A DNA stretch of 64,000 nucleotides, from the NCBI GenBank assembly GCA_964474055.1, contig CAYYRT010000407.1:1110-65109 (forward strand), in the 5' to 3' direction. Every line of letters begins with the position of its first letter. Position 1 is the stretch's first letter. The DNA comes from an uncultured Acidimicrobiaceae bacterium. GTDB taxonomy: Bacteria; Actinomycetota; Acidimicrobiia; Spongiisociales; ZC4RG35. Both the position numbers and the translations under genes were made by a program. Shown here in pieces: positions 6,238 to 63,311 of this stretch. The notes below the pieces were generated by a model. That model saw only the letters and a list, made by a program, of their open reading frames with translations, had not been told where the DNA came from and did not search any database.

Positions 6238-7245
6238 ATGCGCACCGTTCTCGTGACTGGCGGCGCCGGGTTCATCGGGTCGCACCTAGTGGACCAGCTC
6301 CTGGACGGAGGAGCCGCGGTACGCGTTCTGGACAACCTGTCCACTGGCTCGCTGGTCAATTTGAAGGTGGCGGCCGAGCGGCACTCGCGCGACGGGGCGG
6401 TCGTCAACAGCAGTCGCCTCGAGGTCGTGATCGGGGATGTGCGGGATCGGGAGGTACTCCGGAAGGCGCTTCGCGATGTGAAGTACGTGTTCCATCTGGC
6501 GGCGCTGCCGGGGGGTTCAGGCGCGGCGGGAGATTTCGCGGACGTTCACGCGGTGAACGTGGAAGGCACATTGAACCTGCTGCACGGCGCCCTCAGGGAA
6601 GGCGTGTGGCGGGTTGTCCTTGCGTCGTGCGCGTCGGTCTACGGCAGCGGGGACACGGTGGCGGTCTCCGAGGACGCGCCGTTACGGCCGACTAGCCTGT
6701 TCGGAGCGTACAAGGTGGCTGCGGAGACCTACTGCCAAGCCTTCCACGCCCGGCATCAGCTCGACATCGTCGTCCTCCGCTACTTCAGTGTGTACGGCCC
6801 GCGGCAGAAGGCAGTTCCCGGGGGGCCGCTTCTCGCGAACCTGATCGGGGCGATGCGCAAGCGGCGGCCGCTCGAGCACTACAGGAGCACGAGGACGGAC
6901 GACGTCATTTACGTCGAGGATGCCGTCGCCGCTACGTTGGCTGCCGCGCGCGCGCCGCGCGCCGGTGGACAAGCGGTCAATGTTGGGTCGGGAGAGATGA
7001 CGAGTATCGGCGACGTGCTCCGTATCCTGAGTGGTCTTCTGGGGACGCCGGTCGATGTCGGACTTCTGAAACGCTGGGAGGGCGAGCCGCGTGGTGTCAT
7101 CGCGGACACGTCCCGTGCCAGGGCATTGCTGGATTTCGTTCCGCGGATCTCGGTTACCGCGGGGCTCGCGGAGGTCGTACGGGGGCTGGTCGAGGCTGAT
7201 CGGCTGGAGAGCCTTGCGCTGGCTCACGTAGGACTGGATGATTGA
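6238..7245 (+). CDS. NAD-dependent epimerase/dehydratase (SDR family, UDP-sugar 4-epimerase-like).
   Basis: N-terminal VLVTGGAGFIGSHLVDQLL Rossmann motif and a YxxxK region (YKVAAETY). GAGGAG RBS upstream. Confidence 0.8.
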   Translation: MRTVLVTGGAGFIGSHLVDQLLDGGAAVRVLDNLSTGSLVNLKVAAERHSRDGAVVNSSRLEVVIGDVRDREVLRKALRDVKYVFHLAALPGGSGAAGDFADVHAVNVEGTLNLLHGALREGVWRVVLASCASVYGSGDTVAVSEDAPLRPTSLFGAYKVAAETYCQAFHARHQLDIVVLRYFSVYGPRQKAVPGGPLLANLIGAMRKRRPLEHYRSTRTDDVIYVEDAVAATLAAARAPRAGGQAVNVGSGEMTSIGDVLRILSGLLGTPVDVGLLKRWEGEPRGVIADTSRARALLDFVPRISVTAGLAEVVRGLVEADRLESLALAHVGLDD

Positions 7246-8114
7246 TGGTCCCGATCCACAACGCCTTGACGTTTGACGTGGAGGAATACTTCCACGCGGA
7301 GGTCTTCGCGGGAGTGGTACGGCAGGAGCAGTGGGCATCGCTTGAGAGCCGGGTCGCGCCGGCGACGGAGCGGGTGCTTGCGCTCCTCGCCGAGACCGGC
7401 TCCCGGGCCACCTTCTTCGTCCTTGGCTGGGTCGCGGAGCGCCATCCGAAGATGGTGCGGAGCATCGCGGCCCAGGGTCATGAGGTGGCCTGCCACGGCT
7501 ACGGCCATCAGATGATCACGCGCCTGAGCCGTGCCGAGTTCAGAGAGGATATCCACCGCGGTAAAGGCGCGGTGGAGGACGCCGCGGGCGTCGCGGTGAC
7601 CGGCTATCGCGCGCCGACGTTTTCGGTGCTTCGCGAAACACTCTGGAGTCTCGAGGTTCTCGCGGAAGCCGGCTTTGAGTACGACTCGAGCATCTTTCCG
7701 ATCGTCCACGATCGCTACGGGATCCCGGATGCTCCACGGTTTCCGCATCGGCTTCGCGCCGGCCGCGGCAAGGAGATCACCGAGTTTCCGCTCTCCACGG
7801 TGGCTCGGTTCGGGTGGCGGTTCCCGGTGGCGGGCGGCGGGTACTTTCGGCTCTTCCCGTATTCGGTCACGCGCTGGGCGCTAGGCCAGCTCAACGCTCG
7901 CGAAGGCCAGCCGGCCATGGTCTACCTGCATCCGTGGGAGATGGATCCCGAGCAGCCCCGGCTGCCGGTGGGCTGTGTAGCTCAGTTCCGCCACTCGGTG
8001 AACACCGGCTCTACCGTCTCGAAGCTGCGCCGGCTGGTTCGGGAGTTTGCGTTCGCGCCGGTGAGGGACGTGCTCGCCACCGCTGGGGCCATAGGTTGGG
8101 GCAGGGTCGCATGA
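7245..8114 (+). CDS. Polysaccharide deacetylase (NodB fold). Resembles the PEP-CTERM-locus subfamily.
   Basis: TFDVEEYFH..RATFFVLGWVAERHP..GHEVACHGYGH motifs (metal-binding Asp/His). TGATG overlap with the upstream gene. Confidence 0.75.
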   Translation: MVPIHNALTFDVEEYFHAEVFAGVVRQEQWASLESRVAPATERVLALLAETGSRATFFVLGWVAERHPKMVRSIAAQGHEVACHGYGHQMITRLSRAEFREDIHRGKGAVEDAAGVAVTGYRAPTFSVLRETLWSLEVLAEAGFEYDSSIFPIVHDRYGIPDAPRFPHRLRAGRGKEITEFPLSTVARFGWRFPVAGGGYFRLFPYSVTRWALGQLNAREGQPAMVYLHPWEMDPEQPRLPVGCVAQFRHSVNTGSTVSKLRRLVREFAFAPVRDVLATAGAIGWGRVA

Positions 8115-9199
8115 GGATTCTGGCAGTCGTCGGAGCCCGGCCGAACTTCGTCAAGATCGCGCCGATCATGGCCGAGCTCGCGGAGTATCCGTACATCACG
8201 ACCACGCTGGTGCACACCGGACAGCACTACGATGCTCAGATGTCGGACTCTTTTTTCGCGAACCTGGAGATTCCGCGACCGGACACCAACCTCAAGGTGC
8301 AGGCGGGGGGTGCGATCGGCCAGATCGCGGAGATCATGACGCGGATCGAGCCCGTTCTCGACCGCTTTCACCCCGACATGGTGGTGGTCGTGGGCGATGT
8401 TAACTCTACGGTGGCGGCGACCATCGCGGCGGTGAAGATGGGCCGACCGGTGGCGCACGTCGAGGCGGGCCTGCGCAGCTTCGACCGTACCATGCCGGAG
8501 GAGGTGAACCGGATCCTCACCGACTCTATCTCGGATCTGCTTTTCACGAGCGAGCCGTCGGGAGAGGAGAATCTGCTCCGGGAGGGCGTCGCTTCCGAGA
8601 AGATTCACTTCGTGGGAAACGTGATGATCGACACGCTGTTCCGCTACCGAGAGCGGGCGCGGCAGTCTAAGGTGCTGGATCGGCTCGCGCTGTCCGCGGG
8701 CGGATACGTGGTCCTCACCCTCCACCGGCCCAGCAACGTGGACGACGAGGGCACCCTGGGGATGCTGCTCAGCGCGGTCGCCCGCATCCAGGCAGAGATC
8801 CCGGTGGTCTTCCCGGTGCATCCGCGGACACGCCGGCGACTCGAGGCGCTCGCGAGCGTCCTGACGCCGATGCCTGGGCTCCGGTTGGCAGACCCAATGC
8901 CATACCTGGACTTTCTTCAGCTCATGGCCGAGGCGCGTTGCGTGCTAACGGACTCGGGAGGCATTCAGGAGGAAACCACCGCCCTCCGCATCCCGTGCCT
9001 AACGCTGCGGCAGAACACCGAGCGGCCGGTCACGGTGATCCGGGGGACGAATCGCATCGTGGGCACGGAACCGGCTGCGATCTATGAGAGCTGGCGGGAG
9101 GTCGTGGACGGCAAGTGGCCGGCGGGCGAGTTGCCGGAGCTGTGGGACGGCAAGGCGGCTGCCCGCATCGCTCGCGTGCTTCTCGAAGCCGCGAGATAG
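8111..9199 (+). CDS. wecB: UDP-N-acetylglucosamine 2-epimerase (non-hydrolysing).
   Basis: MRILAVVGARPNFVKIAPIM..HTGQHYD..FDRTMPEEVNRILTD..LTDSGGIQEE hallmark motifs. ATGA overlap with the upstream gene. Confidence 0.85.
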   Translation: MRILAVVGARPNFVKIAPIMAELAEYPYITTTLVHTGQHYDAQMSDSFFANLEIPRPDTNLKVQAGGAIGQIAEIMTRIEPVLDRFHPDMVVVVGDVNSTVAATIAAVKMGRPVAHVEAGLRSFDRTMPEEVNRILTDSISDLLFTSEPSGEENLLREGVASEKIHFVGNVMIDTLFRYRERARQSKVLDRLALSAGGYVVLTLHRPSNVDDEGTLGMLLSAVARIQAEIPVVFPVHPRTRRRLEALASVLTPMPGLRLADPMPYLDFLQLMAEARCVLTDSGGIQEETTALRIPCLTLRQNTERPVTVIRGTNRIVGTEPAAIYESWREVVDGKWPAGELPELWDGKAAARIARVLLEAAR

Positions 9200-9207
9200 G
9201 CCGCTCC

Positions 9208-10233
9208 GTGGACGTTCGATCTCTCACGACCGAGACCGTTGATTGGGACGCCTTCGTGCGGAGCACGGCCGGCGGCACCCCCTTTCACCTGATGGCCTGG
9301 AAGCGCGCGGTGGAGAACACCTTCGGCCACCGGGCGCACTACCTGATGGCGGTCCGGCGCGGAGGCCTGGAAGGCGTCCTGCCCCTCTTTGAGGTGCGCG
9401 GGTTGCTCGGGGGCCGTGGGCTCGTGTCAATCCCGTATGCCGTCTACGGCGGGATCTGCGCGTCGGCCGAGCCCGCGCGCGTGGCCCTGCTGGCAGCCGC
9501 TCGAGAGCTGGCTACGAGGACCGGCACCCAGTACGTGGAGCTCCGCCATCGGGCGGACCGGCAGATCGAGGGTCTGCCCACGAAGTCGCTGTACGCGACC
9601 TTCGCGCGGCCGATCACTGCGAGCGACGAGGAGAATCTGAACGCTATCCCGCGCAAGCAGAGGCGGATGACACGGCTGGGCGCCAGGTACGGACTGCGCG
9701 CCGAGGTCGGCTTGCGTCATCTCGACGCCTTCTGGCACGTCTATGCCCACAGCGTGCACGCGCTCGGCTCGCCGGTCTTCCCGCGACGGCTCTTCCACGC
9801 GATCGCCCAGGAGTTCGGAAAGGAGTGCGAGCTCCTGACCGTGTGGAAGGACCAGCAGATGGTCTCCGGGGTCCTGGCCCTGTTCTACGAGGACCAGGTG
9901 CTGCCGTACTACGGGGGCGCTCTCCGGGAGGCGCTGAAGTACTCGGTCAACGACTTCATGTACTGGGAGCTCATGTGCCACGCGGCACGGGCGGGTTGCC
10001 GGACGTTCGATTTCGGCCGCAGCCGCGAGGGCACGGGCGCCTACGACTTCAAGCGTCACTGGGGCTTCGAACCCGTGCCGCTTCCGTATCAGTATGTCCT
10101 CGCGGACGGTGAGAGCATTCCGAACCTCAGTCCCTCGAATCCGAAGATGCACATGGCGGTGCAGGCCTGGAAGCGCCTGCCCCTTCCCGTGACCAAGGTC
10201 GTCGGCCCCCGGCTGACGAAGTACCTGCCATGA
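9208..10233 (+). CDS. FemAB-family protein (aminoacyltransferase-like). Resembles the PEP-CTERM/exosortase-associated FemAB subfamily.
   Basis: About 340 aa with ..WDAFV..TPFHLMAWKRAVE.. and the general FemAB/GNAT-like architecture. GTG start at 9208 inferred immediately after the wecB stop. Confidence 0.65.
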   Translation: MDVRSLTTETVDWDAFVRSTAGGTPFHLMAWKRAVENTFGHRAHYLMAVRRGGLEGVLPLFEVRGLLGGRGLVSIPYAVYGGICASAEPARVALLAAARELATRTGTQYVELRHRADRQIEGLPTKSLYATFARPITASDEENLNAIPRKQRRMTRLGARYGLRAEVGLRHLDAFWHVYAHSVHALGSPVFPRRLFHAIAQEFGKECELLTVWKDQQMVSGVLALFYEDQVLPYYGGALREALKYSVNDFMYWELMCHAARAGCRTFDFGRSREGTGAYDFKRHWGFEPVPLPYQYVLADGESIPNLSPSNPKMHMAVQAWKRLPLPVTKVVGPRLTKYLP

Positions 10234-11471
10234 ACATCCTGATGCTGGGCCGCTGGCTGCCCCCGCCGCGCCGCGCCGTCCGGGCTATGCGCGAGTACCA
10301 GTTCGCCGGCCAGCTCAAGAACGCGCACCGGCTGACGCTCGCGTTCATGGCCGACAATCCGGACTCGGCCGGTCCCATCTCCGCGCTGCGGAGCGAATTC
10401 GGCGACCTCGAGTTCGCGGTGATTCCGCGCGGCTGGAAGTCCCTGTCGAGCGCCCTCCGCCTCGTGACCGGGGAATCCTGCACGCTGTCGTACTTCCGCT
10501 CGGAGGCGCTCCGGACCCGGCTCGCCGATCGGCTGCGGCGGACGCACTACGACCTCATCTTCGTGTCCTCCTCGACGATGATCCAGTACGCCCTGGAGGC
10601 GGACCCGACCATCCCGATGGTGATGGACTTCGGGAGCGTCGGCTCCGAGTGGTGGCTGCAGCAGGCCGAGCGTGGCGCCTTCCCCGGCACGCGGTTTTTC
10701 CGGACGGAGGCTGCGCGCCTGCGCGCCGCCGAGGCGCAGGCGGCCCGGCGGGCGGTCCTTTTGCTGTCCGACACCGCCGAGGCGGGGCGGATCGTCGAGT
10801 CGCTGTCGCCGGGCGCTAGGCCCACGGTCGTGCCGAGCGGAGTGGACGTGGAGGCCTTCCCGGCGCACCCGCCGGCCGGCAAGGTGCCGACCGTGATCTT
10901 CAGCACCTCGCTCACCGATGAAGCCGAGGTCAAGGACGCGGTGGACTTCTGCGAGTCGGTGGTTCCGGCGGTGCGCGCTCGGGTGCCGCAGGCGCGGTTC
11001 GTCGTGGCGAGCAAGGACCCGATCACCAATCCAGGAGCGGCGGGACGGCTGCGCGGCGTCGAGCTGCTCCAGTCGACCGACCTGCGCCTGCTCTTCCACG
11101 ATCGCGCGGTGGCGGCGGGGCCGCTGCACGCGGGATTCGACGTGCGCGGCAGCGTGCTCGAGGCGATGGCGGCCGGGATCCCGGTGGTCGCGAGCGGGCG
11201 GGTCCGGGAGCACCTGAGCGCGACCGCGGATGTCGAGCTGCGGGTTGGGGACACCGCGCCCGAGTTCGCCCGCCACGTGGTCGAGCTCCTGTCGAACAGC
11301 TCGGAGCGTCAGGCGATGGGCGCCAACGGGCGGCGCTTCGTGCGCGCGAACTTCTCCTGGGAGGTCTTCGGGGCTCGCCTGGAGACCCTGCTCACCGGCG
11401 CCGTGAAGAGCCGGTTGACCACGAACGGGGGCCCGGAGTCTCGGCCGATCCCGGCCGCGTTTGGCGGGTGA
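10230..11471 (+). CDS. Glycosyltransferase family 4. A diverged tandem paralog of the next gene.
   Basis: GT4 C-terminal E..(x7)E-like region. Paralogous to 11471-12685, but the N-terminal PYPPxxGDKxR motif is replaced by LPPPRRAVRAMR. ATGA overlap with the upstream gene. Confidence 0.65.
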   Translation: MNILMLGRWLPPPRRAVRAMREYQFAGQLKNAHRLTLAFMADNPDSAGPISALRSEFGDLEFAVIPRGWKSLSSALRLVTGESCTLSYFRSEALRTRLADRLRRTHYDLIFVSSSTMIQYALEADPTIPMVMDFGSVGSEWWLQQAERGAFPGTRFFRTEAARLRAAEAQAARRAVLLLSDTAEAGRIVESLSPGARPTVVPSGVDVEAFPAHPPAGKVPTVIFSTSLTDEAEVKDAVDFCESVVPAVRARVPQARFVVASKDPITNPGAAGRLRGVELLQSTDLRLLFHDRAVAAGPLHAGFDVRGSVLEAMAAGIPVVASGRVREHLSATADVELRVGDTAPEFARHVVELLSNSSERQAMGANGRRFVRANFSWEVFGARLETLLTGAVKSRLTTNGGPESRPIPAAFGG

Positions 11472-12685
11472 TGCGTATGCGCATTCTTATGCTCGCGCAC
11501 CGGATCCCGTATCCGCCGCATACCGGGGACAAGACGCGCGCCTTTCACATCGCGCGTCACCTGGCACGCCACCACGACCTGACGCTCGGCTTCCTCGTCG
11601 AGGAGCGAGCCGATCTTGACGAGCTCAACGGCCTACGGGAGGTCGTCCCTAACGTCGAGTTCGGGCGGCTCTGGAAGCCGTGGAGCCTGCTCAAAGGTCT
11701 CGTCGGACTGACCACCGGTGGGTCGATCAGCCTCCCGTACTTTCACTCGCGGAAGCTTGAGCGGCGCGTGACGCGCCGAGCCGCCGAGACCCCCTACGAT
11801 CTCGTCTACCTCTCCTCCACCCCGATGGCGCAGTACGCGCGCGCGCTCGGGGTGCCGGCGGTGATGGACTTCGTTGACGTGGACTCGGACAAGTGGCGCC
11901 AGTACGCCGAGCACAGCCGCCCGCCCCGGAGCTGGCTCTACCGGACCGAGGGTCGCCGACTCCAAGCCGCCGAGGCCGACATCGCACGCTGGGCGAATCT
12001 CTGCGTGCTCGCCACCAAGGCCGAGGAGACCCTGCTCCGCTCGTTCGCACCGTGGGCCCGCACCGCGGTGGTCACGAACGGCATCGCCCTCGACTACTAC
12101 AAGCCGGTCGAGCGCGAGAGCGTGCCCCCCGCCGTGATCTTCACCGGGGCCATGGACTATCTGCCCAACATTGACGCGGTCCGGCACTTCTGCGACGAGA
12201 TGTTGCCCCGGATCCGGCAGCGAGTTCCCGAGACGCGCTTCTACATCGTCGGGCTGAATCCTCCCGGGGAAGTCCGGCGCCTCGTCGACATCCCGGGGGT
12301 CGTGGTCACCGGCACGGTCCCGGATGTGCGGCCCTACTACGGCCGCGCCGCGGTCTGCGTGGCGCCGCTACGCATCGGCCGGGGCGTCCAGAACAAGGTT
12401 CTCCAGTCAATGGCGATGGGTGTGCCGGTGGTGGCCAGCAGCGTGGCCCAGCGGGGACTCGAGGCGGTGCCCGGCAAGCACCTGTACGTCGAGGACGACC
12501 CCATCGCGGTCGCCGATCGCGTCGTGTCGCTGCTGGCTTCGCCCGCAGCCGCCGCGGCCATGGGCCTTCAGGGGCGCGCGTTCGTCGAGTCACACCACTC
12601 CTGGGACGCCTCCTGCTCGCGCCTCGAAAGCATGCTCCTGACGCTCGCCAGGCCCGGCGCGCATCTCGCGCGGATGCCCGCATGA
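11471..12685 (+). CDS. Glycosyltransferase family 4, PEP-CTERM/EpsH1-system-associated sugar-transferase type.
   Basis: N-terminus MRILMLAHRIPYPPHTGDKTRAFH is the characteristic start of this family. GT4 C-terminal domain present. Confidence 0.8.
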   Translation: MRMRILMLAHRIPYPPHTGDKTRAFHIARHLARHHDLTLGFLVEERADLDELNGLREVVPNVEFGRLWKPWSLLKGLVGLTTGGSISLPYFHSRKLERRVTRRAAETPYDLVYLSSTPMAQYARALGVPAVMDFVDVDSDKWRQYAEHSRPPRSWLYRTEGRRLQAAEADIARWANLCVLATKAEETLLRSFAPWARTAVVTNGIALDYYKPVERESVPPAVIFTGAMDYLPNIDAVRHFCDEMLPRIRQRVPETRFYIVGLNPPGEVRRLVDIPGVVVTGTVPDVRPYYGRAAVCVAPLRIGRGVQNKVLQSMAMGVPVVASSVAQRGLEAVPGKHLYVEDDPIAVADRVVSLLASPAAAAAMGLQGRAFVESHHSWDASCSRLESMLLTLARPGAHLARMPA

Positions 12686-14577
12686 GCGTCCCCGTGCCCT
12701 TCCTTGAAGCGCAGGCGTTCTCCGTCATGGGCGGGCTCGCGCCCGCGCCGGCCCGCCCGGTCACGGGCGAGGCGCTTCGGGCGATGGCTAGGCGCGTGAT
12801 CCAGGAGCCGGGCGCCATCTGCGCAGGGGCCGAGCCGGTCGGTCTGTTCGGCTCCGGCCGGGCCCGGATCGAGCGCGGCGACGCGGTCTGGGTGGCCGCG
12901 GAAGCCGACCTGCTAAACCTGGACGAGCTGCGCGCCGTGGCCGGGCTCGACGAGGCGCAGGCCCAGGCCGGCCTGCTCTCGCGCCTGTACGAGATGGAGG
13001 GGCCTGCGTTCCTCCGGCGGCTGCGCGGCGCCTTCGCTGTGGCGCTGTGGGACCGGCGGCAGCGGGCTCTGCTCCTGGCCGTGGACCCCTTCGGGATGAG
13101 GCGTCTGTACTACGCGGCCGATGTCCGGGGTACCGCCTTCGCGTCGCGCCTGGCCGCGCTGCGGGCCGGCCTCGCCCAGGCAGCGCCCATCGAGCCGGCC
13201 GCCATCTTCAGCTATCTGAACTTCGGCTTCATTCCGGCGCCCGAGACGCCCTTCACCGGCATCCGCCGCGTGCCCCCCGGACACGTGTTCCACGTCCGTC
13301 AGGGCTACAGCAAGCTCGAGCCCTACTGGGACATGAGCTACCCGGAGGAGCGCCACCGGGAGGAACGCGCGGCGGCCAGCTTGTACCGGCTGAGCCACGA
13401 AGCGGTTCGCGAGGCGCTGGCGCAGTCGGATCCGAGCGAGATAGGCGCCTTCCTGAGTGGGGGGACCGACAGCAGCACGGTGGTCGGCCTGATGACCCGC
13501 ATCACGGGGGGGGCGGTCCGCGCGTTCTCGATCGGCTTCCACGAGGATCGTTACGACGAGCTGCAGTACGCGAAGCTGGCCGCGCGGGCTTTCGGCGCGA
13601 CCCATCACACGCGGATCATCAAACCCGACGACGCGCTCGCCGCGCTGCCGCGGCTCGTCGAGGCCTACGACGAGCCCTTTGGCAACAACTCCGCCATCGG
13701 GGTCTACTTCTGCGCGCGCTTGGCCCGCGAGTACGGGGTCTCCCGGCTCCTGGCTGGCGATGGGGGCGACGAGATCTTCGGCGGCAACGAGCGGTACCGC
13801 ACCGATCGCATCTTCGCCCGCTACTCGAGCCTGCCCGCCGCGCTCCGTCACGGATTGCTCGAGCCGGTGCTGCTCGGCCTGCCCGTCGGCGTGCCCGGCA
13901 TCCTGGGCCGGGCCCAGCGCTATATCCGCCGCGCCAACATCCCGAACCCGCGCCGGTTCTACTCCTACGAGTTCCACGTCGCCCAAAACGCGGTTGAGAT
14001 GCTGGAGCCGTCTTTCCTGCGGCAGGCGGCGGCCACGGGGCCGTGGGGCGTGCTCGAGGAGCACTTCGCCCGCGTCCAGGCCAGCTCCGAGCTCAACCGA
14101 CTGATGTACCTCGACCTCAAGCTCACGATCGGCGACAACGACCTCTTCAAGGTCACCCGTACGTCCGAGCTGGGCGGCGTCGAGGTGCGCTTCCCATTCC
14201 TGGACCGGCCGCTGGTCGAGTTCACCGGCACATTGCCGCCCGAGTTCAAGGTGCGTGGGCTCGAGAAGCGGTATCTGTTCAAGCGCTCGTTCCGCGGGCT
14301 CCTGCCGAAGGAGATCCTGGCCAAGCAGAAGCACGGCTTCGGCGTGCCCACGTCCGACTGGCTCCGGAGCCATCGGGGGATTCGCGAGATGGCGCGCGAC
14401 GTCCTGCTGGAGAGCCGGACCGCGGACCGTGGGTATTTCCGGCGCGGAGTTCTGGAGCGCCTGTTCGAGCAGCTCGTCGCGGACAGCACGCCGTTCTACG
14501 GGGACGTCCTCTGGACGCTCCTGATGCTCGAGCTCTGGCACCGCCGTCACGTAGACGGCTGCGGGCTCGGCGGATGA
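12682..14577 (+). CDS. Asparagine-synthetase-like amidotransferase lacking the N-terminal catalytic Cys (degenerate glutaminase domain).
   Basis: Synthetase-domain PP-loop AFLSGGTDSS and conserved AsnB C-terminal blocks are present. The N-terminus has no MCG, HRGPD or YNGEIYN motifs. ATGA overlaps on both sides. Confidence 0.75.
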   Translation: MSVPVPFLEAQAFSVMGGLAPAPARPVTGEALRAMARRVIQEPGAICAGAEPVGLFGSGRARIERGDAVWVAAEADLLNLDELRAVAGLDEAQAQAGLLSRLYEMEGPAFLRRLRGAFAVALWDRRQRALLLAVDPFGMRRLYYAADVRGTAFASRLAALRAGLAQAAPIEPAAIFSYLNFGFIPAPETPFTGIRRVPPGHVFHVRQGYSKLEPYWDMSYPEERHREERAAASLYRLSHEAVREALAQSDPSEIGAFLSGGTDSSTVVGLMTRITGGAVRAFSIGFHEDRYDELQYAKLAARAFGATHHTRIIKPDDALAALPRLVEAYDEPFGNNSAIGVYFCARLAREYGVSRLLAGDGGDEIFGGNERYRTDRIFARYSSLPAALRHGLLEPVLLGLPVGVPGILGRAQRYIRRANIPNPRRFYSYEFHVAQNAVEMLEPSFLRQAAATGPWGVLEEHFARVQASSELNRLMYLDLKLTIGDNDLFKVTRTSELGGVEVRFPFLDRPLVEFTGTLPPEFKVRGLEKRYLFKRSFRGLLPKEILAKQKHGFGVPTSDWLRSHRGIREMARDVLLESRTADRGYFRRGVLERLFEQLVADSTPFYGDVLWTLLMLELWHRRHVDGCGLGG

Positions 14578-15581
14578 GCGCGCTGACCTCGTCGCTGCTG
14601 CGCTGGACGGCCACCGGGCTGCACGCGGCCTGCCTGTCGGGACCCGTGTCGCGGGCTCTCGGCTACGCGAGCGCGGCGCCGACCTTCCCGATCCTGTCGT
14701 ATCACCGGGTCAACGACGAGGGTGATCCGTTCTTTCCCTCGCTGCCCACCGAGATCTTCGAGCGGCAGATGACCTTCGTGGCCCGCGTCTACGTGGTACT
14801 CACGGTCGAGGAACTTGCCGAGCGCATGCGGAGGCGAGCGGTGCCGCGCAACGCGCTGGCCATCACTTTCGATGACGGTTATCGGGACAACCTGACCTAC
14901 GCCGCCCCGATCCTCGCACGGCTCGGGCTTCCCGCCACCGTCTTCCTCGCCACCGGGCCGATCGCTGGCGGAGAGTCCCTGTGGTTCGATCGCCTGGCCG
15001 CGGCCTTCAAGCAAGCCGCCACCCTCGCCTGGCGGGCGCCCTGGGGTGAGAGGCTGCCCCTCGAGACGCCGGCCCAACGCCTGGCCGCGCTCGGGCAGAC
15101 GCTCGGCCGCTTCAAGCGACTCGTCAACGAGGAGCGGCGACGCAAGGTCGAGCAGGTCCTGCTGACGCTAGGAACCGGTGACGACCGTCCGCTCAAGAAC
15201 CTCATGCTGGGCTGGGACGACGTGCAGGCGCTGATGGGTCTCGGCATCACGATCGGCGCCCACACCGTGACCCATCCAATCCTGTCCCAGCTCACACCGG
15301 AGGAAGCCCACGCCGAGATCTTCGAGTCGCACCGTATGATCAAGGCGGCCTGCGGCCGGGCCCCGCGAGCGTTCGCGTACCCCAATGGGCGGCCCGACGA
15401 CTATAGTCCAGCGATCCTCGCGCTCGTACGCGAGGCGGGCTTCACGTGCGCGGTGACGACCACGTTCGGCGTCAACACCCTGAGCACGCCGCCTTACGAG
15501 CTGCGCCGGGGCGGGCCGTGGGAATCCCATCTACCAACCTTTGCGCTCAAACTCGCGGGCTACCGGCTGACCGAGGCGTGA
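14574..15581 (+). CDS. Polysaccharide deacetylase (NodB/CE4 family).
   Basis: ILSYHRV..ALAITFDDGYRDN..ATVFLATG..HTVTHPIL motifs typical of NodB-fold deacetylases. Confidence 0.75.
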   Translation: MSALTSSLLRWTATGLHAACLSGPVSRALGYASAAPTFPILSYHRVNDEGDPFFPSLPTEIFERQMTFVARVYVVLTVEELAERMRRRAVPRNALAITFDDGYRDNLTYAAPILARLGLPATVFLATGPIAGGESLWFDRLAAAFKQAATLAWRAPWGERLPLETPAQRLAALGQTLGRFKRLVNEERRRKVEQVLLTLGTGDDRPLKNLMLGWDDVQALMGLGITIGAHTVTHPILSQLTPEEAHAEIFESHRMIKAACGRAPRAFAYPNGRPDDYSPAILALVREAGFTCAVTTTFGVNTLSTPPYELRRGGPWESHLPTFALKLAGYRLTEA

Positions 15582-15604: not shown

Positions 15605-17287
15605 ATGTGCGGAATCGTCGGATACGTTGGCAACCGGAACGCCGCCGAGATCATCGTGGACGGCCTGAAGCGGCTCGAGTATCGCGGCTACGACTCGGCC
15701 GGTGTCGCGGTGGTGGACGGAGACCGGATCGAGCTCCGGCGGGCGGCGGGGAGAATCGCAGAGCTCGCGAGGCTGCTGCAGGAGCGGCCGGTTGGGGGCA
15801 CCGTCGGTCTCGGCCACACGCGCTGGGCGACTCATGGCCGTCCGTCGGAGGTCAACGCGCATCCACACGGTGACTGCACCGGCTCTCTGGTGGTCGTGCA
15901 CAATGGCATCCTCGAGAACTACTTGAGTCTCAAGGAGCGCCTACTCGAGCACGGTCACCGGTTCCGGTCCGAGACGGATACCGAGGTGATCGCGCACCTC
16001 GTGGAGGCGCACATCTCCAATGGCCTTCCCCTGGCCGCCGCCGCGCAGGCTGCGCTCCGAGAGGTGCGGGGAGCGTATGCGATCGGCATTCTTTCGATAA
16101 GCGCGCCGCGACAGCTCATCGTGGCCAAGCACGGCGCGGGCGCGGTGGTGATGGGACTGGGCGCAGACGAGATCCACGTCGCCTCCGACATTCCCGCTTT
16201 GCTCCCACATACCCGCGACGTGCTAGTTCTGGAGGACGGCGAGACGGCCGTCGTGACGCCGGCCGGGATCTGCCTGAGCACGGTGGATGGCCGCAGCGTG
16301 AGTCGGGCCCCGATCCGTATCACGTGGGATGCCACCATGGCGGAAAAAGGCGGCTATCGCCACTTTATGGCAAAGGAGATCTTCGAACAGCCGCGGGCGG
16401 TGACCGACACCTTCCTGGGACGTGTGGACATCGAGCACGGCTCGGTGAGCATTCCCGAGGCCAAGCTGACGCCGGACCTTCTCATCCCGATCCAGCGGGT
16501 CGTCCTGGTCGCCTGCGGCACGTCCTATCATGCCGCCTTGATAGGACGGACGATGGTCGAACGCTTGGCCGGGCTGCCTGCCGACGTCGCGGTCGCGTCC
16601 GAGTTCCGATATTCGGACCTGATCTTGGGGCCCGGCACCTTGATCGTCGCTATCTCTCAGTCCGGGGAGACCGCCGATACGATCGGCGCCGTGAAGGCGG
16701 GGCGGCGGTTGGGAGCCCCGGCGCTGTCCATCACGAATGTCGTAGGCTCAGCGCTTGCTCGTGAGTCAGATGGCGTGGTCTACACCCACGCCGGTCCGGA
16801 GATCGGCGTGGCCTCGAGCAAGACCTTCACGGCCACGCTTGCCGCGTGCTACATGCTGGCTCTCGCGATGGGCCGCATTCGCGGCCATCTGAGTGAGGCG
16901 GACGGGCGGAAGCGGGTCGAAGATCTTCTCGAGATGCCGAGGCTCATGGAGTCCGCCCTCACCGCCGACGCGCCTGCGGCCGTGCTCGCGCGAAAGCTTA
17001 CCGCCTACGAACACTTGCTATATCTTGGGCGCGGGGTTCAGTATCCGGTGGCACTGGAGGGCGCACTGAAAATGAAAGAGATCTCATACGTGCACGCCGA
17101 AGGGTACGCCGCCGGTGAGATGAAGCATGGACCGATAGCGCTGATTGACGACCGGATGCCGGTGATCGCGATAGCTCCTCGTGACCCATCCCACGACCGC
17201 ATGCTGGGCACGATCGAAGAGGTGCGGGGGCGAGACGGACACGTAGTCGCGCTGTGCCATGCGGACGACGCCGCGATCGCGGAGTAG
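15605..17287 (+). CDS. glmS: Glutamine--fructose-6-phosphate aminotransferase-like protein (GlmS-like). About 50 aa shorter at the C-terminus than canonical GlmS.
   Basis: MCGIVGYVG N-terminal nucleophile and two SIS domains (GTSYHAAL; AISQSGETADT; EGYAAGEMKHGPIALID). Ends at ...ALCHADDAAIAE without the conserved C-terminal tail. Confidence 0.75.
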   Translation: MCGIVGYVGNRNAAEIIVDGLKRLEYRGYDSAGVAVVDGDRIELRRAAGRIAELARLLQERPVGGTVGLGHTRWATHGRPSEVNAHPHGDCTGSLVVVHNGILENYLSLKERLLEHGHRFRSETDTEVIAHLVEAHISNGLPLAAAAQAALREVRGAYAIGILSISAPRQLIVAKHGAGAVVMGLGADEIHVASDIPALLPHTRDVLVLEDGETAVVTPAGICLSTVDGRSVSRAPIRITWDATMAEKGGYRHFMAKEIFEQPRAVTDTFLGRVDIEHGSVSIPEAKLTPDLLIPIQRVVLVACGTSYHAALIGRTMVERLAGLPADVAVASEFRYSDLILGPGTLIVAISQSGETADTIGAVKAGRRLGAPALSITNVVGSALARESDGVVYTHAGPEIGVASSKTFTATLAACYMLALAMGRIRGHLSEADGRKRVEDLLEMPRLMESALTADAPAAVLARKLTAYEHLLYLGRGVQYPVALEGALKMKEISYVHAEGYAAGEMKHGPIALIDDRMPVIAIAPRDPSHDRMLGTIEEVRGRDGHVVALCHADDAAIAE

Positions 17288-17309
17288 AGAGAGGCGGCAA
17301 GACATCGCC

Positions 17310-17828
17310 ATGACCACCCGGACGTCGATATCGTTTCGGACGAGACGCGTGTTGAGCAGCACCGTATTGGGCGGTGCCCTCGTATTGGGTAGTAGCCTGT
17401 CGACGGCGGCGCCGGGGCGGGCGCAGGTAGGCCAGCCGGTTGATCTCTTCAATCACACGTTCGACCGTAAGGTCGTCACCGTGCAGGTGCGCTCTGCTCT
17501 TCCCACCGCGGTCGATGGGCTCGAGCGGCTCGTGACCGCGACAGACGTCCGACAAGCACAACAGGCGATGGTGTCGATCAGGAACACGTATCGTTACCTG
17601 CGGGCGGCACAGGAGAGCATCACCCTCATTCATCAGCAAGCCAAGTACCCTGATCCGCTCGCCCCGGTGTACGCGAAGCGGATGTGGGAAGTGCGCGCCC
17701 ATTTGCTCAAGTGCCTTGATACGCGCGACACTCTCACCCCTGACAACCCAGAAAGTGTGGCCATGTGCGCCGACGAGCTCACCGAGGGAATTCGGAAGCT
17801 TCGCATCCTGGTCACACTCTTGCCGTGA
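17310..17828 (+). CDS. Hypothetical small secreted protein (predicted signal peptide).
   Basis: N-terminus MTTRTSISFRTRRVLSSTVLGGALVLGSSLSTAAPGRAQ is signal-peptide-like. It fills the only gap in the operon and its stop overlaps the downstream start (TGATG). Confidence 0.4.
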   Translation: MTTRTSISFRTRRVLSSTVLGGALVLGSSLSTAAPGRAQVGQPVDLFNHTFDRKVVTVQVRSALPTAVDGLERLVTATDVRQAQQAMVSIRNTYRYLRAAQESITLIHQQAKYPDPLAPVYAKRMWEVRAHLLKCLDTRDTLTPDNPESVAMCADELTEGIRKLRILVTLLP

Positions 17829-19148: not shown

Positions 19149-21020
19149 ATGTGCGGCATCGCCGGTCTGCTCCGGTTGGATGGCGCCCCGGTGGACCCGG
19201 CGATTGTTCGGCGCATGACCGACATTCTGGCCCACCGCGGTCCGGACGGTGAGGGATTCCACGTGGACGGACCGGTGGGGCTCGGCCACCGGCGTCTCGC
19301 GATCATCGACCTGGCGGGGGGCCGTCAGCCGATGGCCACCGCCGATGGAGCGATCTGGATCACGTACAATGGCGAGATCTACAACTACCGCGAGATCCGG
19401 CGAGAGCTGGGCGGTCTCGGCTTCGATCTCCGCTCCGCCTCGGATACCGAGGTCATCCTCGCGGCCTACGAGGCCTGGGGAGTGGGGTGTCTGGGTCGCC
19501 TGCGGGGGATGTTCGCCTTCGCTATCTGGGATGGGCGGCGGCGGCGGATCTTCATGGCGCGGGATCGGGTCGGCATCAAGCCGCTGGTTTACGCCTGGGA
19601 TGGCCGGTGCCTGCGGTTCGCCTCGGAGATCAAAGCTCTTCTCGAGGATCCCGCCGTTTCCCGTGAGCTCGACTGGGGAGCCGTTCGGGACTATCTTACG
19701 CATCACTACGTCTCCGCGCCTCGGACCATCTTCCGCGGAATACAGAAGCTGCCGCCGGCATCGTATCTGCTCTGCTCGCTTGACGGCAGTGAGCCCAAGG
19801 TTGAGAGCTATTGGGACCTGCACATGGCGCCGGACGCGAGTCTCAGTGAGAGCGACTGGACTGAGCAGCTCGAGTACCTCCTGAACGAGACCGTCCAGCT
19901 CCATATGGTCAGCGACGTTCCGGTGGGTGCCTTCCTCAGCGGTGGGATCGATTCCAGTAGCGTGGTGGCCTGTATGGCCCGCGCATCCGCCGGTCCAGTG
20001 AAGACGTTCTCTATCGGTTTCGACGAGCAGAACTTCGACGAGCTACGGTACGCGCGCCTGGTCGCAAAACGGTACGGAACCGAGCACTTCGAGATGATCG
20101 TGAAGCCCGACGTGATGAGCGTCCTGCCCCGCCTGGCTTGGCAGTTTGACGAGCCATTCAGCGATGCCTCGGCGATCCCAACGTACTGCGTAGCGAAGGT
20201 CACTCAGGAGCATGTAACCGTTGCTCTCTCCGGCGACGGCGGCGATGAGAGCTTCGCCGGATACCGCCGCTATGCCCATGCGTTGGATCTGCATCGCCGG
20301 ATCGACCGGACGCCGGCTTCTCTCGCCAAGCCTCTACTCCGGTGGGCCGCCGCCCGGCGGAGCCCAGGGGCCCGGGGGCGCGAGTTCATGGCGCTGCTCG
20401 GCATGTCGCCACTGGACCGATATCACCGGATGATGACGTATCAGTCGGAGGAAACGCTGGCGGCCCTGTTGACGCCCGAAGCCACCGCAAACGTGGTGCT
20501 CGACGCGGGGTCGACGGGATTCGGGCGCCTGGCGGCCGCGGCGGGCACCGACGACTACCTTTCGATGCTTCAGTACATAGACGTCCACCACTACTTGCCC
20601 GGGGACATCCTGACCAAGGTGGACCGGACGAGCATGCTCACATCGCTCGAGGCCCGAGTGCCGCTGCTCGACCACGTGCTCATGGAACACGCGGCCCGTA
20701 TGCCCTCCGACGCCAAGCTCCGAGATGGGATGGGGAAGCACGTCCTGAAAGAAGCGATGCGACCTCACCTGCCGGCGGAGATCCTGGACCGTCAGAAGAT
20801 GGGGTTTGGTGTGCCTCTGGCTACGTGGTTCCGAAAGGACCTGAAGGACTTCGCGCGTGACCTTCTGGCGGATCACCGAACCCGACAACGAGGGATCCTG
20901 CGGCCCGACACCGTGAGTCACTTGTTGGATATACACATCACCGGGAACCGTGACTACTCGTCTCAGCTGTGGTCCTTCATCTGCCTCGAGCTCTGGTTTC
21001 GTACGTGGTGGGACAAGTAA
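19149..21020 (+). CDS. asnB: Asparagine synthetase (glutamine-hydrolysing) family amidotransferase.
   Basis: MCGIAG N-terminus, HRGPDGEG, RLAIIDL, YNGEIYNY and PP-loop AFLSGGIDSS. Confidence 0.85.
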   Translation: MCGIAGLLRLDGAPVDPAIVRRMTDILAHRGPDGEGFHVDGPVGLGHRRLAIIDLAGGRQPMATADGAIWITYNGEIYNYREIRRELGGLGFDLRSASDTEVILAAYEAWGVGCLGRLRGMFAFAIWDGRRRRIFMARDRVGIKPLVYAWDGRCLRFASEIKALLEDPAVSRELDWGAVRDYLTHHYVSAPRTIFRGIQKLPPASYLLCSLDGSEPKVESYWDLHMAPDASLSESDWTEQLEYLLNETVQLHMVSDVPVGAFLSGGIDSSSVVACMARASAGPVKTFSIGFDEQNFDELRYARLVAKRYGTEHFEMIVKPDVMSVLPRLAWQFDEPFSDASAIPTYCVAKVTQEHVTVALSGDGGDESFAGYRRYAHALDLHRRIDRTPASLAKPLLRWAAARRSPGARGREFMALLGMSPLDRYHRMMTYQSEETLAALLTPEATANVVLDAGSTGFGRLAAAAGTDDYLSMLQYIDVHHYLPGDILTKVDRTSMLTSLEARVPLLDHVLMEHAARMPSDAKLRDGMGKHVLKEAMRPHLPAEILDRQKMGFGVPLATWFRKDLKDFARDLLADHRTRQRGILRPDTVSHLLDIHITGNRDYSSQLWSFICLELWFRTWWDK

Positions 21021-22151: not shown

Positions 22152-24074
22152 GTGTGCGGCATCAACGGCGTTGTCTACACGGATCCGCGCCATCCCGTGG
22201 ATCGCGCCCTGCTACGTCGTCTCACCACGACGCTGGCCCACCGGGGACCGGATGCCGACGGCTTCTTCTGGGAAGAAGGCGCCGCCCTGGGCCACCGTCG
22301 GCTCAGTATCATCGACCTCTCCACTGGCGATCAGCCAATCTTCAACGAGGACGGCACCAAGGCGGTGGTCTTCAACGGCGAGATCTACAACTTCCACGAG
22401 CTGCGAGCCGATCTCACCGCGCTTGGCCATCGCTTCGCTACGGCTTCCGACACCGAAGTGCTCGTCCACGCCTGGGAGGAGTGGGGCGACGGGTTCGTGG
22501 CCCGGCTGCGAGGTATGTTCGCTTTCGCCCTCTGGGATCGCCGCCACCGCCGGCTCCTCCTGGCCCGCGACCGGGTGGGCAAGAAGCCGCTCTACTACAT
22601 CCACGATGAGGAGAGGCTGCTCTTCGGCTCGGAGTTGAAGGCCCTTCTCGGCGATCCGTCGGTGAAGCGAGCCGTCAATCTGGAGGTGCTGGACGACTAC
22701 CTCACCTTTGGCGCGGTGCCGGCCCCGCGCACGATCTACCAAGGTATCCAGCAGATCCTGCCGGCGCACTACCTGGTCTGGGAAGGTGGGCGGGTCCGCA
22801 CGACTGAGTACTGGGATCTCACGTATCGCTCCGGCCCGGCGCGCGGGGAAGCGGCCTGGTTGGAGGAGTTCGAGGACATCTTCAGCGAGGCGGTGCGGCT
22901 TCGCATGATTTCAGATGTACCGCTGGGCGCCTTTCTCTCCGGTGGCGTGGACTCGAGCGCGGTGGTGGCAGCGATGGCCGCCCAGGCCTCGCGGCCGGTC
23001 ATCACGACGAACGTCTCCTTCGCCGAAAGCGCCTTCGACGAGGCGTCCCACGCCCGGACCGTGGCCCGCGCGCTGAATACCGAGCACCATGAGCTCCTTG
23101 TCGAGCCGCGGGGCGCGGACATTCTTCCTGCACTGGTCTGGCATCTCGACGAGCCCTTTGCCGACTCCTCGGCGATGCCGACGTACTACGTCGCCCGCGC
23201 AGCTCGGCAGCGCGTGACGGTGGCCCTGTCTGGTGACGGTGGGGACGAGATCTTCGCAGGCTACCAGTGGCGCTACGGCTTGAACCTGGTCGAAGCGCGC
23301 CTCAGGCGGCTGATCCCGGGCCCGGTCCGCCGCAACCTGCTGGGTCCGCTCTCTACGGTGTGGCCCAAGGCGGACCGTCTGCCGCGCCCGCTGCGGTGGA
23401 AGTTCCTCCTGCGGAACCTAAGCCTCGAGGCCGAGCACGCCTACTTCCATGATATGAGCCTCTTCACGGCCGCCGATAAGCGGGGACTCTTGACCGATGG
23501 GTTCCAGCGCACGCTCAACGGTTACGATCCCTATCCCGCCTTCCAGAGACACTTTGACCGAGTACGCGGCGCCGATCACCTCAGCCGGCTTCTCTACGTG
23601 GATCTCAAGACCTGGCTGCCCAACGACATCCTGGTTAAGATGGATCGAATGGCTATGGCCAACTCCCTCGAGGTCCGGTCACCGCTCCTCGATCACAAAG
23701 TCATTGAGTTCGCCGCGACCCTGCCCTCGGAGCTCAAGTACCGCGGAACCACCTCGAAGTACTTGCTCAAGCGCTACACCGAGCGGCGGGTCCCGGCCTC
23801 GGCCGTCCACCGTCCGAAGATGGGCTTCTCCATACCGCTAGCGACCTGGCTGAGGCGCGAGCTACGTCCGACGGCGGAGCAGTTACTCCTCTCCGAGCGC
23901 GCGCTCGAGCGGGGCTATTTCCGACCGGCTCAGATCGGAGCGATGTGGGCGCGTCATCAGGACGGTAGCCACGACCACTCGCACCATCTGTGGGCGCTGA
24001 TGATGCTCGAGCTGTGGCACCGGCTCTTTGTCGATCAAGCGCCAACTCTGACCGCGCCGGATGCTGCGCGATGA
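22152..24074 (+). CDS. asnB: Asparagine synthetase (glutamine-hydrolysing) family amidotransferase.
   Basis: GTG start then CGINGVV, HRGPDADG, RLSIIDL, FNGEIYNF, PP-loop AFLSGGVDSS. Confidence 0.85.
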   Translation: MCGINGVVYTDPRHPVDRALLRRLTTTLAHRGPDADGFFWEEGAALGHRRLSIIDLSTGDQPIFNEDGTKAVVFNGEIYNFHELRADLTALGHRFATASDTEVLVHAWEEWGDGFVARLRGMFAFALWDRRHRRLLLARDRVGKKPLYYIHDEERLLFGSELKALLGDPSVKRAVNLEVLDDYLTFGAVPAPRTIYQGIQQILPAHYLVWEGGRVRTTEYWDLTYRSGPARGEAAWLEEFEDIFSEAVRLRMISDVPLGAFLSGGVDSSAVVAAMAAQASRPVITTNVSFAESAFDEASHARTVARALNTEHHELLVEPRGADILPALVWHLDEPFADSSAMPTYYVARAARQRVTVALSGDGGDEIFAGYQWRYGLNLVEARLRRLIPGPVRRNLLGPLSTVWPKADRLPRPLRWKFLLRNLSLEAEHAYFHDMSLFTAADKRGLLTDGFQRTLNGYDPYPAFQRHFDRVRGADHLSRLLYVDLKTWLPNDILVKMDRMAMANSLEVRSPLLDHKVIEFAATLPSELKYRGTTSKYLLKRYTERRVPASAVHRPKMGFSIPLATWLRRELRPTAEQLLLSERALERGYFRPAQIGAMWARHQDGSHDHSHHLWALMMLELWHRLFVDQAPTLTAPDAAR

Positions 24075-27906: not shown

Positions 27907-27910
27907 GCGG

Positions 27911-36647: not shown

Positions 36648-36994
36648 GATATCGATACCGGCTTTCTCTCATCGGTGCGGTCCTCTGGAGCGTGTCCCTG
36701 ATACCAAGCGGCTACGTCGACGACAGGCCTCGAAGCGCGCAGGCCCAGGGCGCCCCCGGGCGGGAGCCGAGTCCCGGCTCGTCTCAGGATGCCGGTGTCT
36801 CCACCCCGCTCAACCCGACCGCTGGCGCCCACATGGACAGCTATGACTACGATAGGCGGAACCGCGTCATAGTCAGCACGAGCTACGGGGAGAGCCAGTT
36901 CCGGATGTGGGTCTGGAGGCCTGATGACAGTGTCTGGAGGGAACTGCCCGTCGACACCCGCCCGACCGAGCTGTGGGCCTGGGGCTATCGGTGA
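36644..36994 (+). CDS. Hypothetical small secreted protein.
   Basis: Signal-peptide-like MRYRYRLSLIGAVLWSVSLIPSG. ATGA overlap with the upstream gene. Confidence 0.4.
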   Translation: MRYRYRLSLIGAVLWSVSLIPSGYVDDRPRSAQAQGAPGREPSPGSSQDAGVSTPLNPTAGAHMDSYDYDRRNRVIVSTSYGESQFRMWVWRPDDSVWRELPVDTRPTELWAWGYR

Positions 36995-37008
36995 AAGCCC
37001 GCGAAGCC

Positions 37009-44456: not shown

Positions 44457-45847
<1,391 letters not shown>

Positions 45848-45851
<4 letters not shown>

Positions 45852-47437: not shown

Positions 47438-47446
47438 GCGGGCGCG

Positions 47447-50918: not shown

Positions 50919-50931
50919 CCCCGGTCCCGCC

Positions 50932-52098: not shown

Positions 52099-52105
52099 GC
52101 CGGCC

Positions 52106-60556: not shown

Positions 60557-63311
<2,755 letters not shown>

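Follow-up and report, generated by a model that had tools for sequence, protein, structure and literature searches.

What does an asparagine synthetase homolog do when the residues that release ammonia from glutamine are gone? The question is raised by a 64,000-nucleotide stretch of contig CAYYRT010000407.1 from an uncultured Acidimicrobiaceae bacterium (hereafter, the window). On its plus strand, the window encodes a 631-amino-acid paralog of the asparagine synthetase (AsnB) family, here designated AsnB* (12682..14577), whose 3' end overlaps the gene of a polysaccharide deacetylase, NodB2 (14574..15581). The initial annotation described AsnB* as having lost its Cys nucleophile and every motif of the glutaminase domain, and proposed either an amidotransferase that uses free ammonia or another amine donor or a noncatalytic scaffold. 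We examined the open reading frame (ORF) and its relatives using Pfam and NCBIfam profiles, an AlphaFold2 model, and Foldseek. From these comparisons, we conclude with moderate confidence that AsnB* belongs to the AsnB superfamily as a glutaminase-dead but synthetase-competent protein that would act, by the mechanism proposed below, as a glutamine-independent amide synthetase in XrtA/PEP-CTERM exopolysaccharide (EPS) loci. Glutaminase-dead AsnB homologs are already known; a clade from polysaccharide loci with the partners reported here is not described in the literature that we searched. That literature contained nothing on the AsnB* clade, and the 2006 PEP-CTERM paper makes no mention of asparagine synthases.

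The two halves of AsnB*

The AsnB* ORF begins with ATG and has the N-terminus MSVPVPFLEAQAFSVMGGLAP, and no Cys occurs in residues 1 to 46. An upstream in-frame start restoring an N-terminal MCG was sought across the 50 in-frame codons 5' of the gene, which contain no stop codon, no ATG, GTG, or TTG recognized by the ORF finder, and no MCG. The start codon lies in an ATGA overlap (12682..12685, plus strand, read directly as gcATGAgc) with the preceding TIGR03087 glycosyltransferase gene (11468-12685). According to the orthologs and the AlphaFold2 model, the first 15 residues (MSVPVPFLEAQAFSV; 12682..12726, plus strand) form an N-terminal extension ahead of the first strand of the N-terminal nucleophile (Ntn)-fold domain. 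This extension is conserved at the protein level in the nearest orthologs (MSxPxPFLE...), and other orthologs begin MxLIGGL without it. Some orthologs begin at the equivalent of M16 (MGGLAP), and a start there is possible in principle; we favor 12682 because the extension is conserved in the nearest orthologs and because the ATGA overlaps the upstream gene. With either start, the N-terminus lacks Cys. The GC content at third codon positions (GC3) of the gene is 0.91, a usual value for genes of this genome (the window is ~67% GC), and the exact protein also occurs in an independent Logan assembly.

The N-terminal half (residues 16 to 190; 12727..13251, plus strand) is delimited by alignments and the AlphaFold2 model as a degenerate class II (Ntn) glutaminase-like domain. 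It lacks the MCG-type N-terminal Cys of glutamine-hydrolyzing AsnB as well as the glutamine-binding and oxyanion set Arg49, Asn74, Gly75, Glu76, and Asp98 (E. coli numbering). The initial annotation had called for alignment with E. coli AsnB (1CT9). HMMER aligned AsnB* residues 72 to 160 with 1CT9 residues 72 to 164, placing E74/A75/D76 (12901-12909, plus strand) opposite N74/G75/E76 and a gap opposite the S-D98-C-E segment. The losses extend across the family. In an alignment of 119 close family members with two of the window's canonical paralogs, all 119 lacked the nine residues GHRRL(A/S)IID that hold the Arg49 equivalent, another six residues were missing ahead of the D98 region, and the former N-G-E read D/E - L/M/A - D. 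The former Cys position is best equated with G17 (12730-12732, plus strand) of V-M16-G17-G18-L, by comparison with the M-S-G-I-C-G-W N-termini of the wider clade; S14, the equivalent in a first MAFFT alignment, was displaced after this comparison. A few orthologs have a Cys three residues ahead of IGG (e.g., ...CVIGG), which is not conserved.

The statement that every glutaminase-domain motif has been lost therefore holds for the catalytic motifs, all of which are gone, but not for the domain as a whole. Pfam still matches GATase_7 (1.2e-14, residues 67 to 161) and GATase_6 (5.9e-10) in AsnB*, compared with 1e-47 on GATase_7 for a canonical paralog. The structural motifs LRGAFAxALWD, LLLAVDxFGxRxLYY, and FAS are retained, and the block-mean predicted local distance difference test score (pLDDT) of the AlphaFold2 model is 83 to 93 over residues 15 to 165 (residues 1 to 10 are below 50 and disordered). 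The glutaminase catalytic motifs are thus gone, and the Ntn fold is predicted to survive.

The C-terminal half matches the full Pfam Asn_synthase domain (3e-83). Its PP-loop, SGGTDSS, is intact as first described; it lies at residues 259 to 265 (13456..13476, plus strand; FLSGGTDSS, 257 to 265) and is invariant in 16/16 family members. GDGGDE (residues 359 to 364; 13756..13773, plus strand) corresponds to the SGEGSDE Mg/AMP-binding loop of E. coli AsnB, being aligned to 1CT9 ~346-352. K550 (14329..14331, plus strand) is the equivalent of E. coli Lys449 by residue counting along the 1CT9 alignment (residues 383 to 465). Residue conservation was assessed over 83 clade sequences, at least 90% of which, like the canonical AsnBs, keep S259, G260, G261, D263, S264, and S265; D330, GDGGDE, K490, K523, and K550 are likewise conserved in at least 90% and are identical in the canonical enzymes. 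Mean pairwise identity within the clade is 46% in the synthetase domain and 27% in the N-domain, versus 45% and 53%, respectively, in canonical XrtA AsnBs. By this measure, the synthetase domain is as constrained as its canonical counterparts, and only the N-domain is relaxed. Since the synthetase core is conserved and the N-domain is relaxed, the pattern points to an adenylating enzyme with a vestigial N-domain and not to a pseudoenzyme.

Residues near the active site set the clade apart: N335, N369, R425, D487, and K548 replace the canonical D, Y, Y, I, and R, which suggests a changed substrate. Furthermore, residue counting aligns the aspartate-binding Arg387 of E. coli AsnB with K490 in both AsnB* and the canonical XrtA paralogs, suggesting a nonaspartate substrate. 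The AlphaFold2 model, built from a 16-sequence alignment, has the two-domain AsnB fold (pLDDT, 81; predicted template modeling score, 0.83), and its top Foldseek matches in the PDB are TsnB9, E. coli AsnB, human ASNS, beta-lactam synthetase, and carbapenam synthetase CarA. Among NCBIfam models, none is dedicated to the AsnB* clade. The best, TIGR03108, reaches 324.9 bits (cutoff, 816.9) and covers profile positions 96 to 624 only; the TIGR01536 score is borderline, 1.9 bits over its cutoff (269.0 versus 267.1), and comes from the C-terminal domain only (profile positions 81 to 517). AsnB* shares 34% identity over 600 amino acids with the canonical paralog encoded at 19149-21020.

The AsnB* clade and its recurrent neighbors

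More than 120 AsnB* orthologs were found in the protein database at 56 to 93% identity, nearly all 585 to 660 amino acids long (a few are truncated), and they share the absence of the Cys nucleophile, which is hence not a chance feature of one gene. An MCG N-terminus occurs in 0/120; most start M-x-L-I-G-G-L or carry a 13- to 15-residue extension. Public records name such proteins "asparagine synthase (glutamine-hydrolyzing)," which appears from the sequences to be a systematic misannotation, as glutamine would not be hydrolyzable by the known mechanism. The best homologs carry the names Methylomirabilota and "Candidatus Rokuibacteriota," and judged by these names the organism would be of that type. 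When one genome was scanned for each GTDB species, 80 loci were obtained, every one of which scored higher to AsnB* (360 to 650 bits) than to the canonical paralog (150 to 320 bits); the same direction holds for all 82 genome loci recovered. Hosts include Methylomirabilota, Acidobacteriota, an Actinomycetota metagenome-assembled genome, Desulfobacterales, and many Beta- and Gammaproteobacteria, among them Massilia, Janthinobacterium, Duganella, Rubrivivax, Nitrosomonas, Nitrosospira, Nitrotoga, and Chromatiaceae. In a neighbor-joining tree of the synthetase domain only, a single branch separates the 83 clade sequences from 17 canonical ones, and the motifs HRRLxIID, NGEIYN, and SDTE are absent from all clade members. 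At least one XrtA-locus marker was detected by BLAST in 42/50 homologous loci of at least 15 kb.

Many clade members other than those of Rokubacteria have an M-S-G-[ILVM]-C-G-W N-terminus, in which Cys stands at position 5 after a conserved leader of 3 to 4 residues and the other glutaminase motifs are gone. By locus number, these include L009, L012, L014, L017, L020-L024, L028-L030, L033-L036, L042, L047, L061, L065, L067, L068, L073, and L078. This leader may be cleaved off, like the propeptide of B. subtilis PurF, or the Cys may serve some different purpose.

NodB2, on the plus strand, is a 335-amino-acid deacetylase of carbohydrate esterase family 4 (CE4) with PgaB-N-domain/PplD-like sequence. 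Its Pfam match to Polysacc_deac_1 (PF01522) is 1.6e-23, at 83.4 bits versus a gathering score of 23.1, and its PDB sequence matches are 6dq3 and PgaB. The start is confirmed by orthologs of 335 amino acids that align over the full length (100% coverage). The CE4 catalytic and metal motif TFDD (TFDDGYRDN; D100-D101; 14871-14876) and the HxxxH metal motif HTVTH (GAHTVTHP; H230-H234; 15261-15275), both on the plus strand, are at least 95% conserved across 146 homologs. NodB2 shows no hydrophobic N-terminus, signal peptide, or transmembrane segment and is predicted to be cytoplasmic; both it and AsnB* would therefore act in the cytoplasm. It is not the canonical XrtA deacetylase, as TIGR03006 gave no match to it at E values up to 1e-3; the real member of that family is encoded at 7242-8114.

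The two genes share an ATGA stop/start overlap (14574..14577, plus strand, read directly as ggATGAgc), which bears out the coupling first described and would be expected to couple their translation. The same 4-nucleotide overlap recurs in two independent Methylomirabilota contigs (L001 and L002), even with different upstream genes, and NodB2 overlaps and is codirectional with AsnB* throughout the Methylomirabilota loci L001-L004. The association extends across phyla in other orientations: the same NodB subtype lies on the same strand in Acidobacteriota and the Actinomycetota metagenome-assembled genome (L009, L012, L054), is convergent in Oxalobacteraceae (L017, L024, L034, L042, L072), and is upstream in L077. 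Neighbor and N-terminus counts were taken over 82 loci, and when all ORFs within 4 kb were clustered, NodB2 was the largest neighbor family (28/82).

Other partners recur as well. GNAT2, a second Acetyltransf_6, FemAB-like paralog, directly adjoins AsnB* in L002-L004, L007, L033, L036, L057, and L064. It is fused to NodB2 in a single ORF directly downstream of AsnB* in two Bryobacteraceae genomes (L005:6952-9525 and L006:9602-12019), a GNAT2::NodB2 arrangement that would link de-N-acetylation to reacylation. The commonest immediate neighbor (17/82 loci) is the TIGR03099 pyridoxal phosphate (PLP)-dependent decarboxylase; Betaproteobacteria have the operon order acyl-CoA ligase, decarboxylase, AsnB*, with TIGR03098 and TIGR03099 immediately upstream. 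Canonical AsnB paralogs lie within 3 kb in 7/82 loci and within 8 kb in 15/82, and GlmS is a neighbor in 2/82, with the order AsnB*, NodB2, GlmS in the window and in L001. Clustering of the ORFs within 4 kb revealed no dedicated small glutaminase gene beside clade members.

Proposed reaction and its rivals

Because the glutaminase site is dead and the adenylating domain is intact, AsnB* is not an ordinary glutamine-dependent amidotransferase. In the mechanism that we propose, the C-terminal PP-loop domain would adenylate a carboxylate with ATP. Most plausibly, this would be the C-6 carboxyl of a uronic-acid sugar, e.g., N-acetylmannosaminuronic or N-acetylglucosaminuronic acid (ManNAcA/GlcNAcA) derived from the WecB and UDP-ManNAc dehydrogenase of the locus; alternatively, it would be the carboxyl of an acyl or aminoacyl group that the sugar already carries. 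The adenylate would be resolved by a nitrogen nucleophile that does not derive from glutamine. We prefer an organic amine in this role, with two candidates: a sugar amine unmasked by the coupled cytoplasmic NodB2 and an amine formed by the XrtA-associated PLP decarboxylase. The reaction would then yield a substituted amide and not a plain uronamide, presumably on a second, modified sugar within the repeat unit. As in beta-lactam synthetase and carbapenam synthetase, the vestigial N-domain would do no more than scaffold the structure or the substrate cleft. NodB2 and AsnB*, joined in many genomes by GNAT2, would constitute a second, diverged deacetylase/acyltransferase/AsnB triad. The window also holds the canonical triad (TIGR03006, TIGR03019, and TIGR03108-like), and its diverged set consists of NodB2, AsnB*, and, at 27896-28945, a weak homolog of GNAT2. 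Substrates, nucleophile, and order of steps are all inferred. An organic or sugar amine is favored over free ammonia because known glutaminase-dead AsnB homologs use substrate amines, AsnB* is coupled to amine-creating enzymes, four glutamine-dependent paralogs are already present in the window, and the clade has its own active-site-proximal substitutions.

Several points weigh against this reading. Approximately 36/82 members, outside Methylomirabilota, keep the Cys in the M-S-G-[ILVM]-C-G-W N-terminus (MCGW in three), and this could mean residual N-domain chemistry in those lineages. Among the remaining members, the Cys position is occupied by G, A, F, W, Y, or T; retention in some lineages and varied replacement in others fit a Cys that has escaped selection and is no longer needed for catalysis. 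NodB2 lies within 8 kb in only 18/50 loci of at least 15 kb, and the pairing is frequent but not obligatory. Both the carboxylate and the amine are putative, and the literature that we searched yielded no biochemical or genetic data on any clade member. Finally, AsnB-family enzymes, including those of the E. coli AsnB type, accept free ammonia in vitro, and plain NH3-dependent amidation is conceivable.

This last point supports an ammonia-dependent amidotransferase, which would carry out the same conversion of uronic acid to uronamide as the canonical paralogs with free NH3/NH4+ in place of glutamine. The intact synthetase core beside a dead glutaminase site and the fact that the closest profile is still TIGR03108 are compatible with it. 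Nevertheless, we regard it as unlikely: a fifth primary amidase seems redundant beside four canonical glutamine-dependent paralogs; the deacetylase coupling, the GNAT2::NodB2 fusion, and the adjacency of the decarboxylase would be left unexplained; and the clade-specific substitutions suggest a changed substrate. AsnB* might instead still depend on glutamine, with the ammonia supplied in trans by a separate glutaminase, either a canonical AsnB partner or the neighboring truncated GlmS-like protein, which follows NodB2 in the window and in L001 and, in its truncated form, keeps an MCGIVG glutaminase domain. Split glutaminase/synthetase systems such as MurT-GatD are known, but a GlmS neighbor in so few loci, the absence of a dedicated small glutaminase gene from the clustered neighborhoods, and the poor conservation of the N-domain that docking or ammonia channeling would need make this account very improbable.

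The scaffold of the initial annotation, in which AsnB* would have no catalysis of its own and would organize or regulate a canonical AsnB, NodB2, or a glycosyltransferase complex, is disfavored by the synthetase half. Dead enzymes normally lose such catalytic residues, whereas here the PP-loop, the Mg/AMP loop, and the Lys are conserved across at least five phyla, with D330 and K490 also held in the great majority of members and synthetase identity equal to that of active paralogs (46% versus 45%). AsnB enzymes are dimers, a canonical AsnB lies nearby in some loci, and the N-domain has been kept though catalytically dead; these points speak for a noncatalytic role, which we nevertheless judge very improbable. 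A decaying gene or an annotation artefact (wrong start, frameshift, or pseudogene) is hardly credible. The sequence does contradict the "glutamine-hydrolyzing" name in public records, but the intact 631-amino-acid ORF, its GC3, the Logan copy, the lack of an upstream start, and more than 120 orthologs of equal length rule out a pseudogene or assembly artefact, and conservation across the family effectively refutes this explanation.

The amide synthetase reading has precedents within the superfamily. Beta-lactam synthetase (1JGT/1MC1) and CarA (1Q15) combine the AsnB fold, a dead glutaminase N-domain, and an intact PP-loop domain, and they activate a carboxylate by adenylation and form the amide bond with an amine borne by the substrate. 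Foldseek matched them to AsnB* at E values of 1e-17 to 1e-19 (CarA sequence match, 2e-08). They differ from AsnB* in their low identity (16 to 18%), their length of ~500 amino acids without the C-terminal extension, and their setting in antibiotic gene clusters. TIGR03108 and WbpS-like AsnBs belong to the same superfamily and share the two-domain architecture of ~620 to 640 amino acids, the long C-terminal extension, and the XrtA EPS locus; AsnB* differs in lacking the Cys nucleophile and the Arg49/Asn74/Glu76/Asp98 site and in forming a separate clade with active-site-proximal substitutions. The clade arose from XrtA-type long AsnBs, independently of beta-lactam synthetase and CarA. Lasso-peptide isopeptide cyclases (NF033535) and ikarugamycin/albusnodin macrolactam cyclases (NF033561) are also glutamine-independent AsnB homologs that form an amide with a substrate amine. 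AsnB* is not a member of either family (151 versus a cutoff of 525 and 84 versus 300, respectively), scores below the window's canonical paralogs, and has no context of ribosomally synthesized and posttranslationally modified peptides. The hydroxyamidotransferase TsnB9 (7YLZ) is the best PDB match by sequence (5.5e-20) and structure (E value, 1e-25; template modeling score, 0.69 to 0.75). It belongs to the long-form AsnB homologs and transfers a nitrogen nucleophile other than ammonia. It is only 20% identical, comes from trichostatin biosynthesis, and is described as an amidotransferase, with a working N-domain assumed.

The closest parallel in pathway composition is the Wbp/Vim pathway, in which VimE (a CE4 deacetylase), VimA (FemAB-like), and WbpS (an AsnB homolog) build an aminoacylated glucuronamide linking sugar (PMC7468200). 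The linking sugar of type IX secretion, 2-N-seryl/glycyl-3-N-acetyl-glucuronamide, is made from a di-N-acetyl uronic acid and anchors sorted proteins in P. gingivalis, and the same authors noted that XrtA loci carry homologous genes, those of TIGR03019 and TIGR03108 (PMC7468200). The three enzyme types are those of the recurrent NodB2, GNAT2, and AsnB*, including the GNAT2::NodB2 fusion; the difference is that WbpS is a canonical amidotransferase, whereas AsnB* is a glutaminase-dead member of a second, diverged set. A more specific version of our reading, which we offer as a doubtful extension, is that AsnB* is a dedicated ATP-dependent ligase that joins an organic amine (a sugar amine freed by NodB2 or the ligase/decarboxylase product) to a carboxylate of the XrtA EPS, giving a substituted-amide "linking" moiety for attachment of PEP-CTERM proteins by exosortase A. 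If this were true, the moiety would correspond, in proteobacteria, acidobacteria, and rokubacteria, to the Wbp/Vim linking sugar of type IX secretion. Activated-sludge bacteria need the PEP-CTERM/exosortase system to form flocs (PMC9012009, PMC9850573), and the clade with its recurrent partners (the CE4 deacetylase, GNAT2, and the PLP decarboxylase) provides a concrete, testable enzyme set for the chemical linkage of PEP-CTERM proteins to exopolysaccharide. Massilia, Janthinobacterium, Duganella, and Rubrivivax are tractable carriers among the hosts.

The XrtA/PEP-CTERM locus around AsnB*

By its gene content, the window is a large XrtA/PEP-CTERM exopolysaccharide locus. Above their curated cutoffs are the priming transferase TIGR03013, the chain-length determinant TIGR03007, the ligase-like TIGR03097, the glycosyltransferases TIGR03087, TIGR03088, and TIGR04063, WecB, and TIGR03006, TIGR03019, and TIGR03098. 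A UDP-ManNAc-dehydrogenase-type gene scores above the cutoff of its nucleoside diphosphate-sugar dehydrogenase subfamily. Just below cutoff are a TIGR03099-like PLP decarboxylase (457 versus 478 bits) and a TIGR03015-like ATPase (244 versus 324.5 bits). NCBIfam scans of the window's large ORFs, beyond which no search was made, did not recognize xrtA, which may sit outside the window or in an unscanned ORF.

The canonical deacetylase (TIGR03006; 7242..8114, plus strand), distinct from NodB2, scores 371 bits versus a cutoff of 276, and the canonical FemAB-family XrtA-associated protein (TIGR03019, VimA-like; 9115..10233, plus strand) scores 397.5 versus 260. Four canonical AsnB paralogs score 544 to 759 bits, all below the TIGR03108 cutoff of 816.9. 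The first (19149..21020, plus strand) is of the MCG type, TIGR03108-like at 697 bits, with the full-length GATase_7 match of 1e-47; the second (22152..24074, plus strand; 759 bits) has the N-terminus VCG, a GTG start followed by Cys-Gly. The other two lie at 54320-56179 and 61401-63311, and all four have Cys-Gly N-termini and full glutaminase domains. NCBIfam also places the acyl-CoA ligase TIGR03098 at 31174-32871 and the TIGR03099-like decarboxylase at ~32850-34178, both on the plus strand.

Upstream of AsnB* stands a tandem pair of TIGR03087-type glycosyltransferases, also seen in L001; the one at 11468-12685 passes the cutoff (416 bits), and the one at 10230-11471 is strongly diverged (199 versus 317). 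Downstream of NodB2, GlmS (15605-17828) has 560 amino acids that align to residues 1 to 555 of the 612-amino-acid GlmS of L001; it keeps the MCGIVG glutaminase domain, and its C-terminal isomerase tail is absent. In L001, the next gene after GlmS encodes a 490-amino-acid Wzx-type flippase, to which nothing in the window matches. The truncation and the missing flippase look like a deletion of ~1.6 kb, which is probably not a misassembly because the same 560-amino-acid GlmS occurs in the independent Logan assembly (L083).

Farther along the window, an F390-synthetase/PaaK-like adenylating enzyme (26347-27906) is followed by the GNAT gene at 27896-28945, which is weakly similar to the GNAT2 family (tblastn, 1.9e-7), is BspF-like in NCBIfam, and is possibly the window's displaced GNAT2. 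A second EPS gene set, in a part of the window with higher GC content (44457-53041; 70 to 74% versus 60 to 67%), comprises a sigma-54 response regulator (like the PEP-CTERM-box regulator, below cutoff), a second TIGR03007 chain-length determinant, a TIGR03015-like ATPase (below cutoff), a second TIGR03013-type priming transferase (slightly below cutoff), a glycosyltransferase of family 2 (GT2), and a Trm112-methyltransferase fusion. Three large ORFs have faint family matches only: 36973-39993 (1,006 amino acids, with a weak hydrazine-synthase-alpha-like stretch), 41363-42592 on the minus strand (a NosD-like beta-helix), and 58085-60556 (823 amino acids, with a heparinase II/III [HepC]-like region). 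The NosD-like and HepC-like proteins are possible EPS-modifying or EPS-degrading enzymes.

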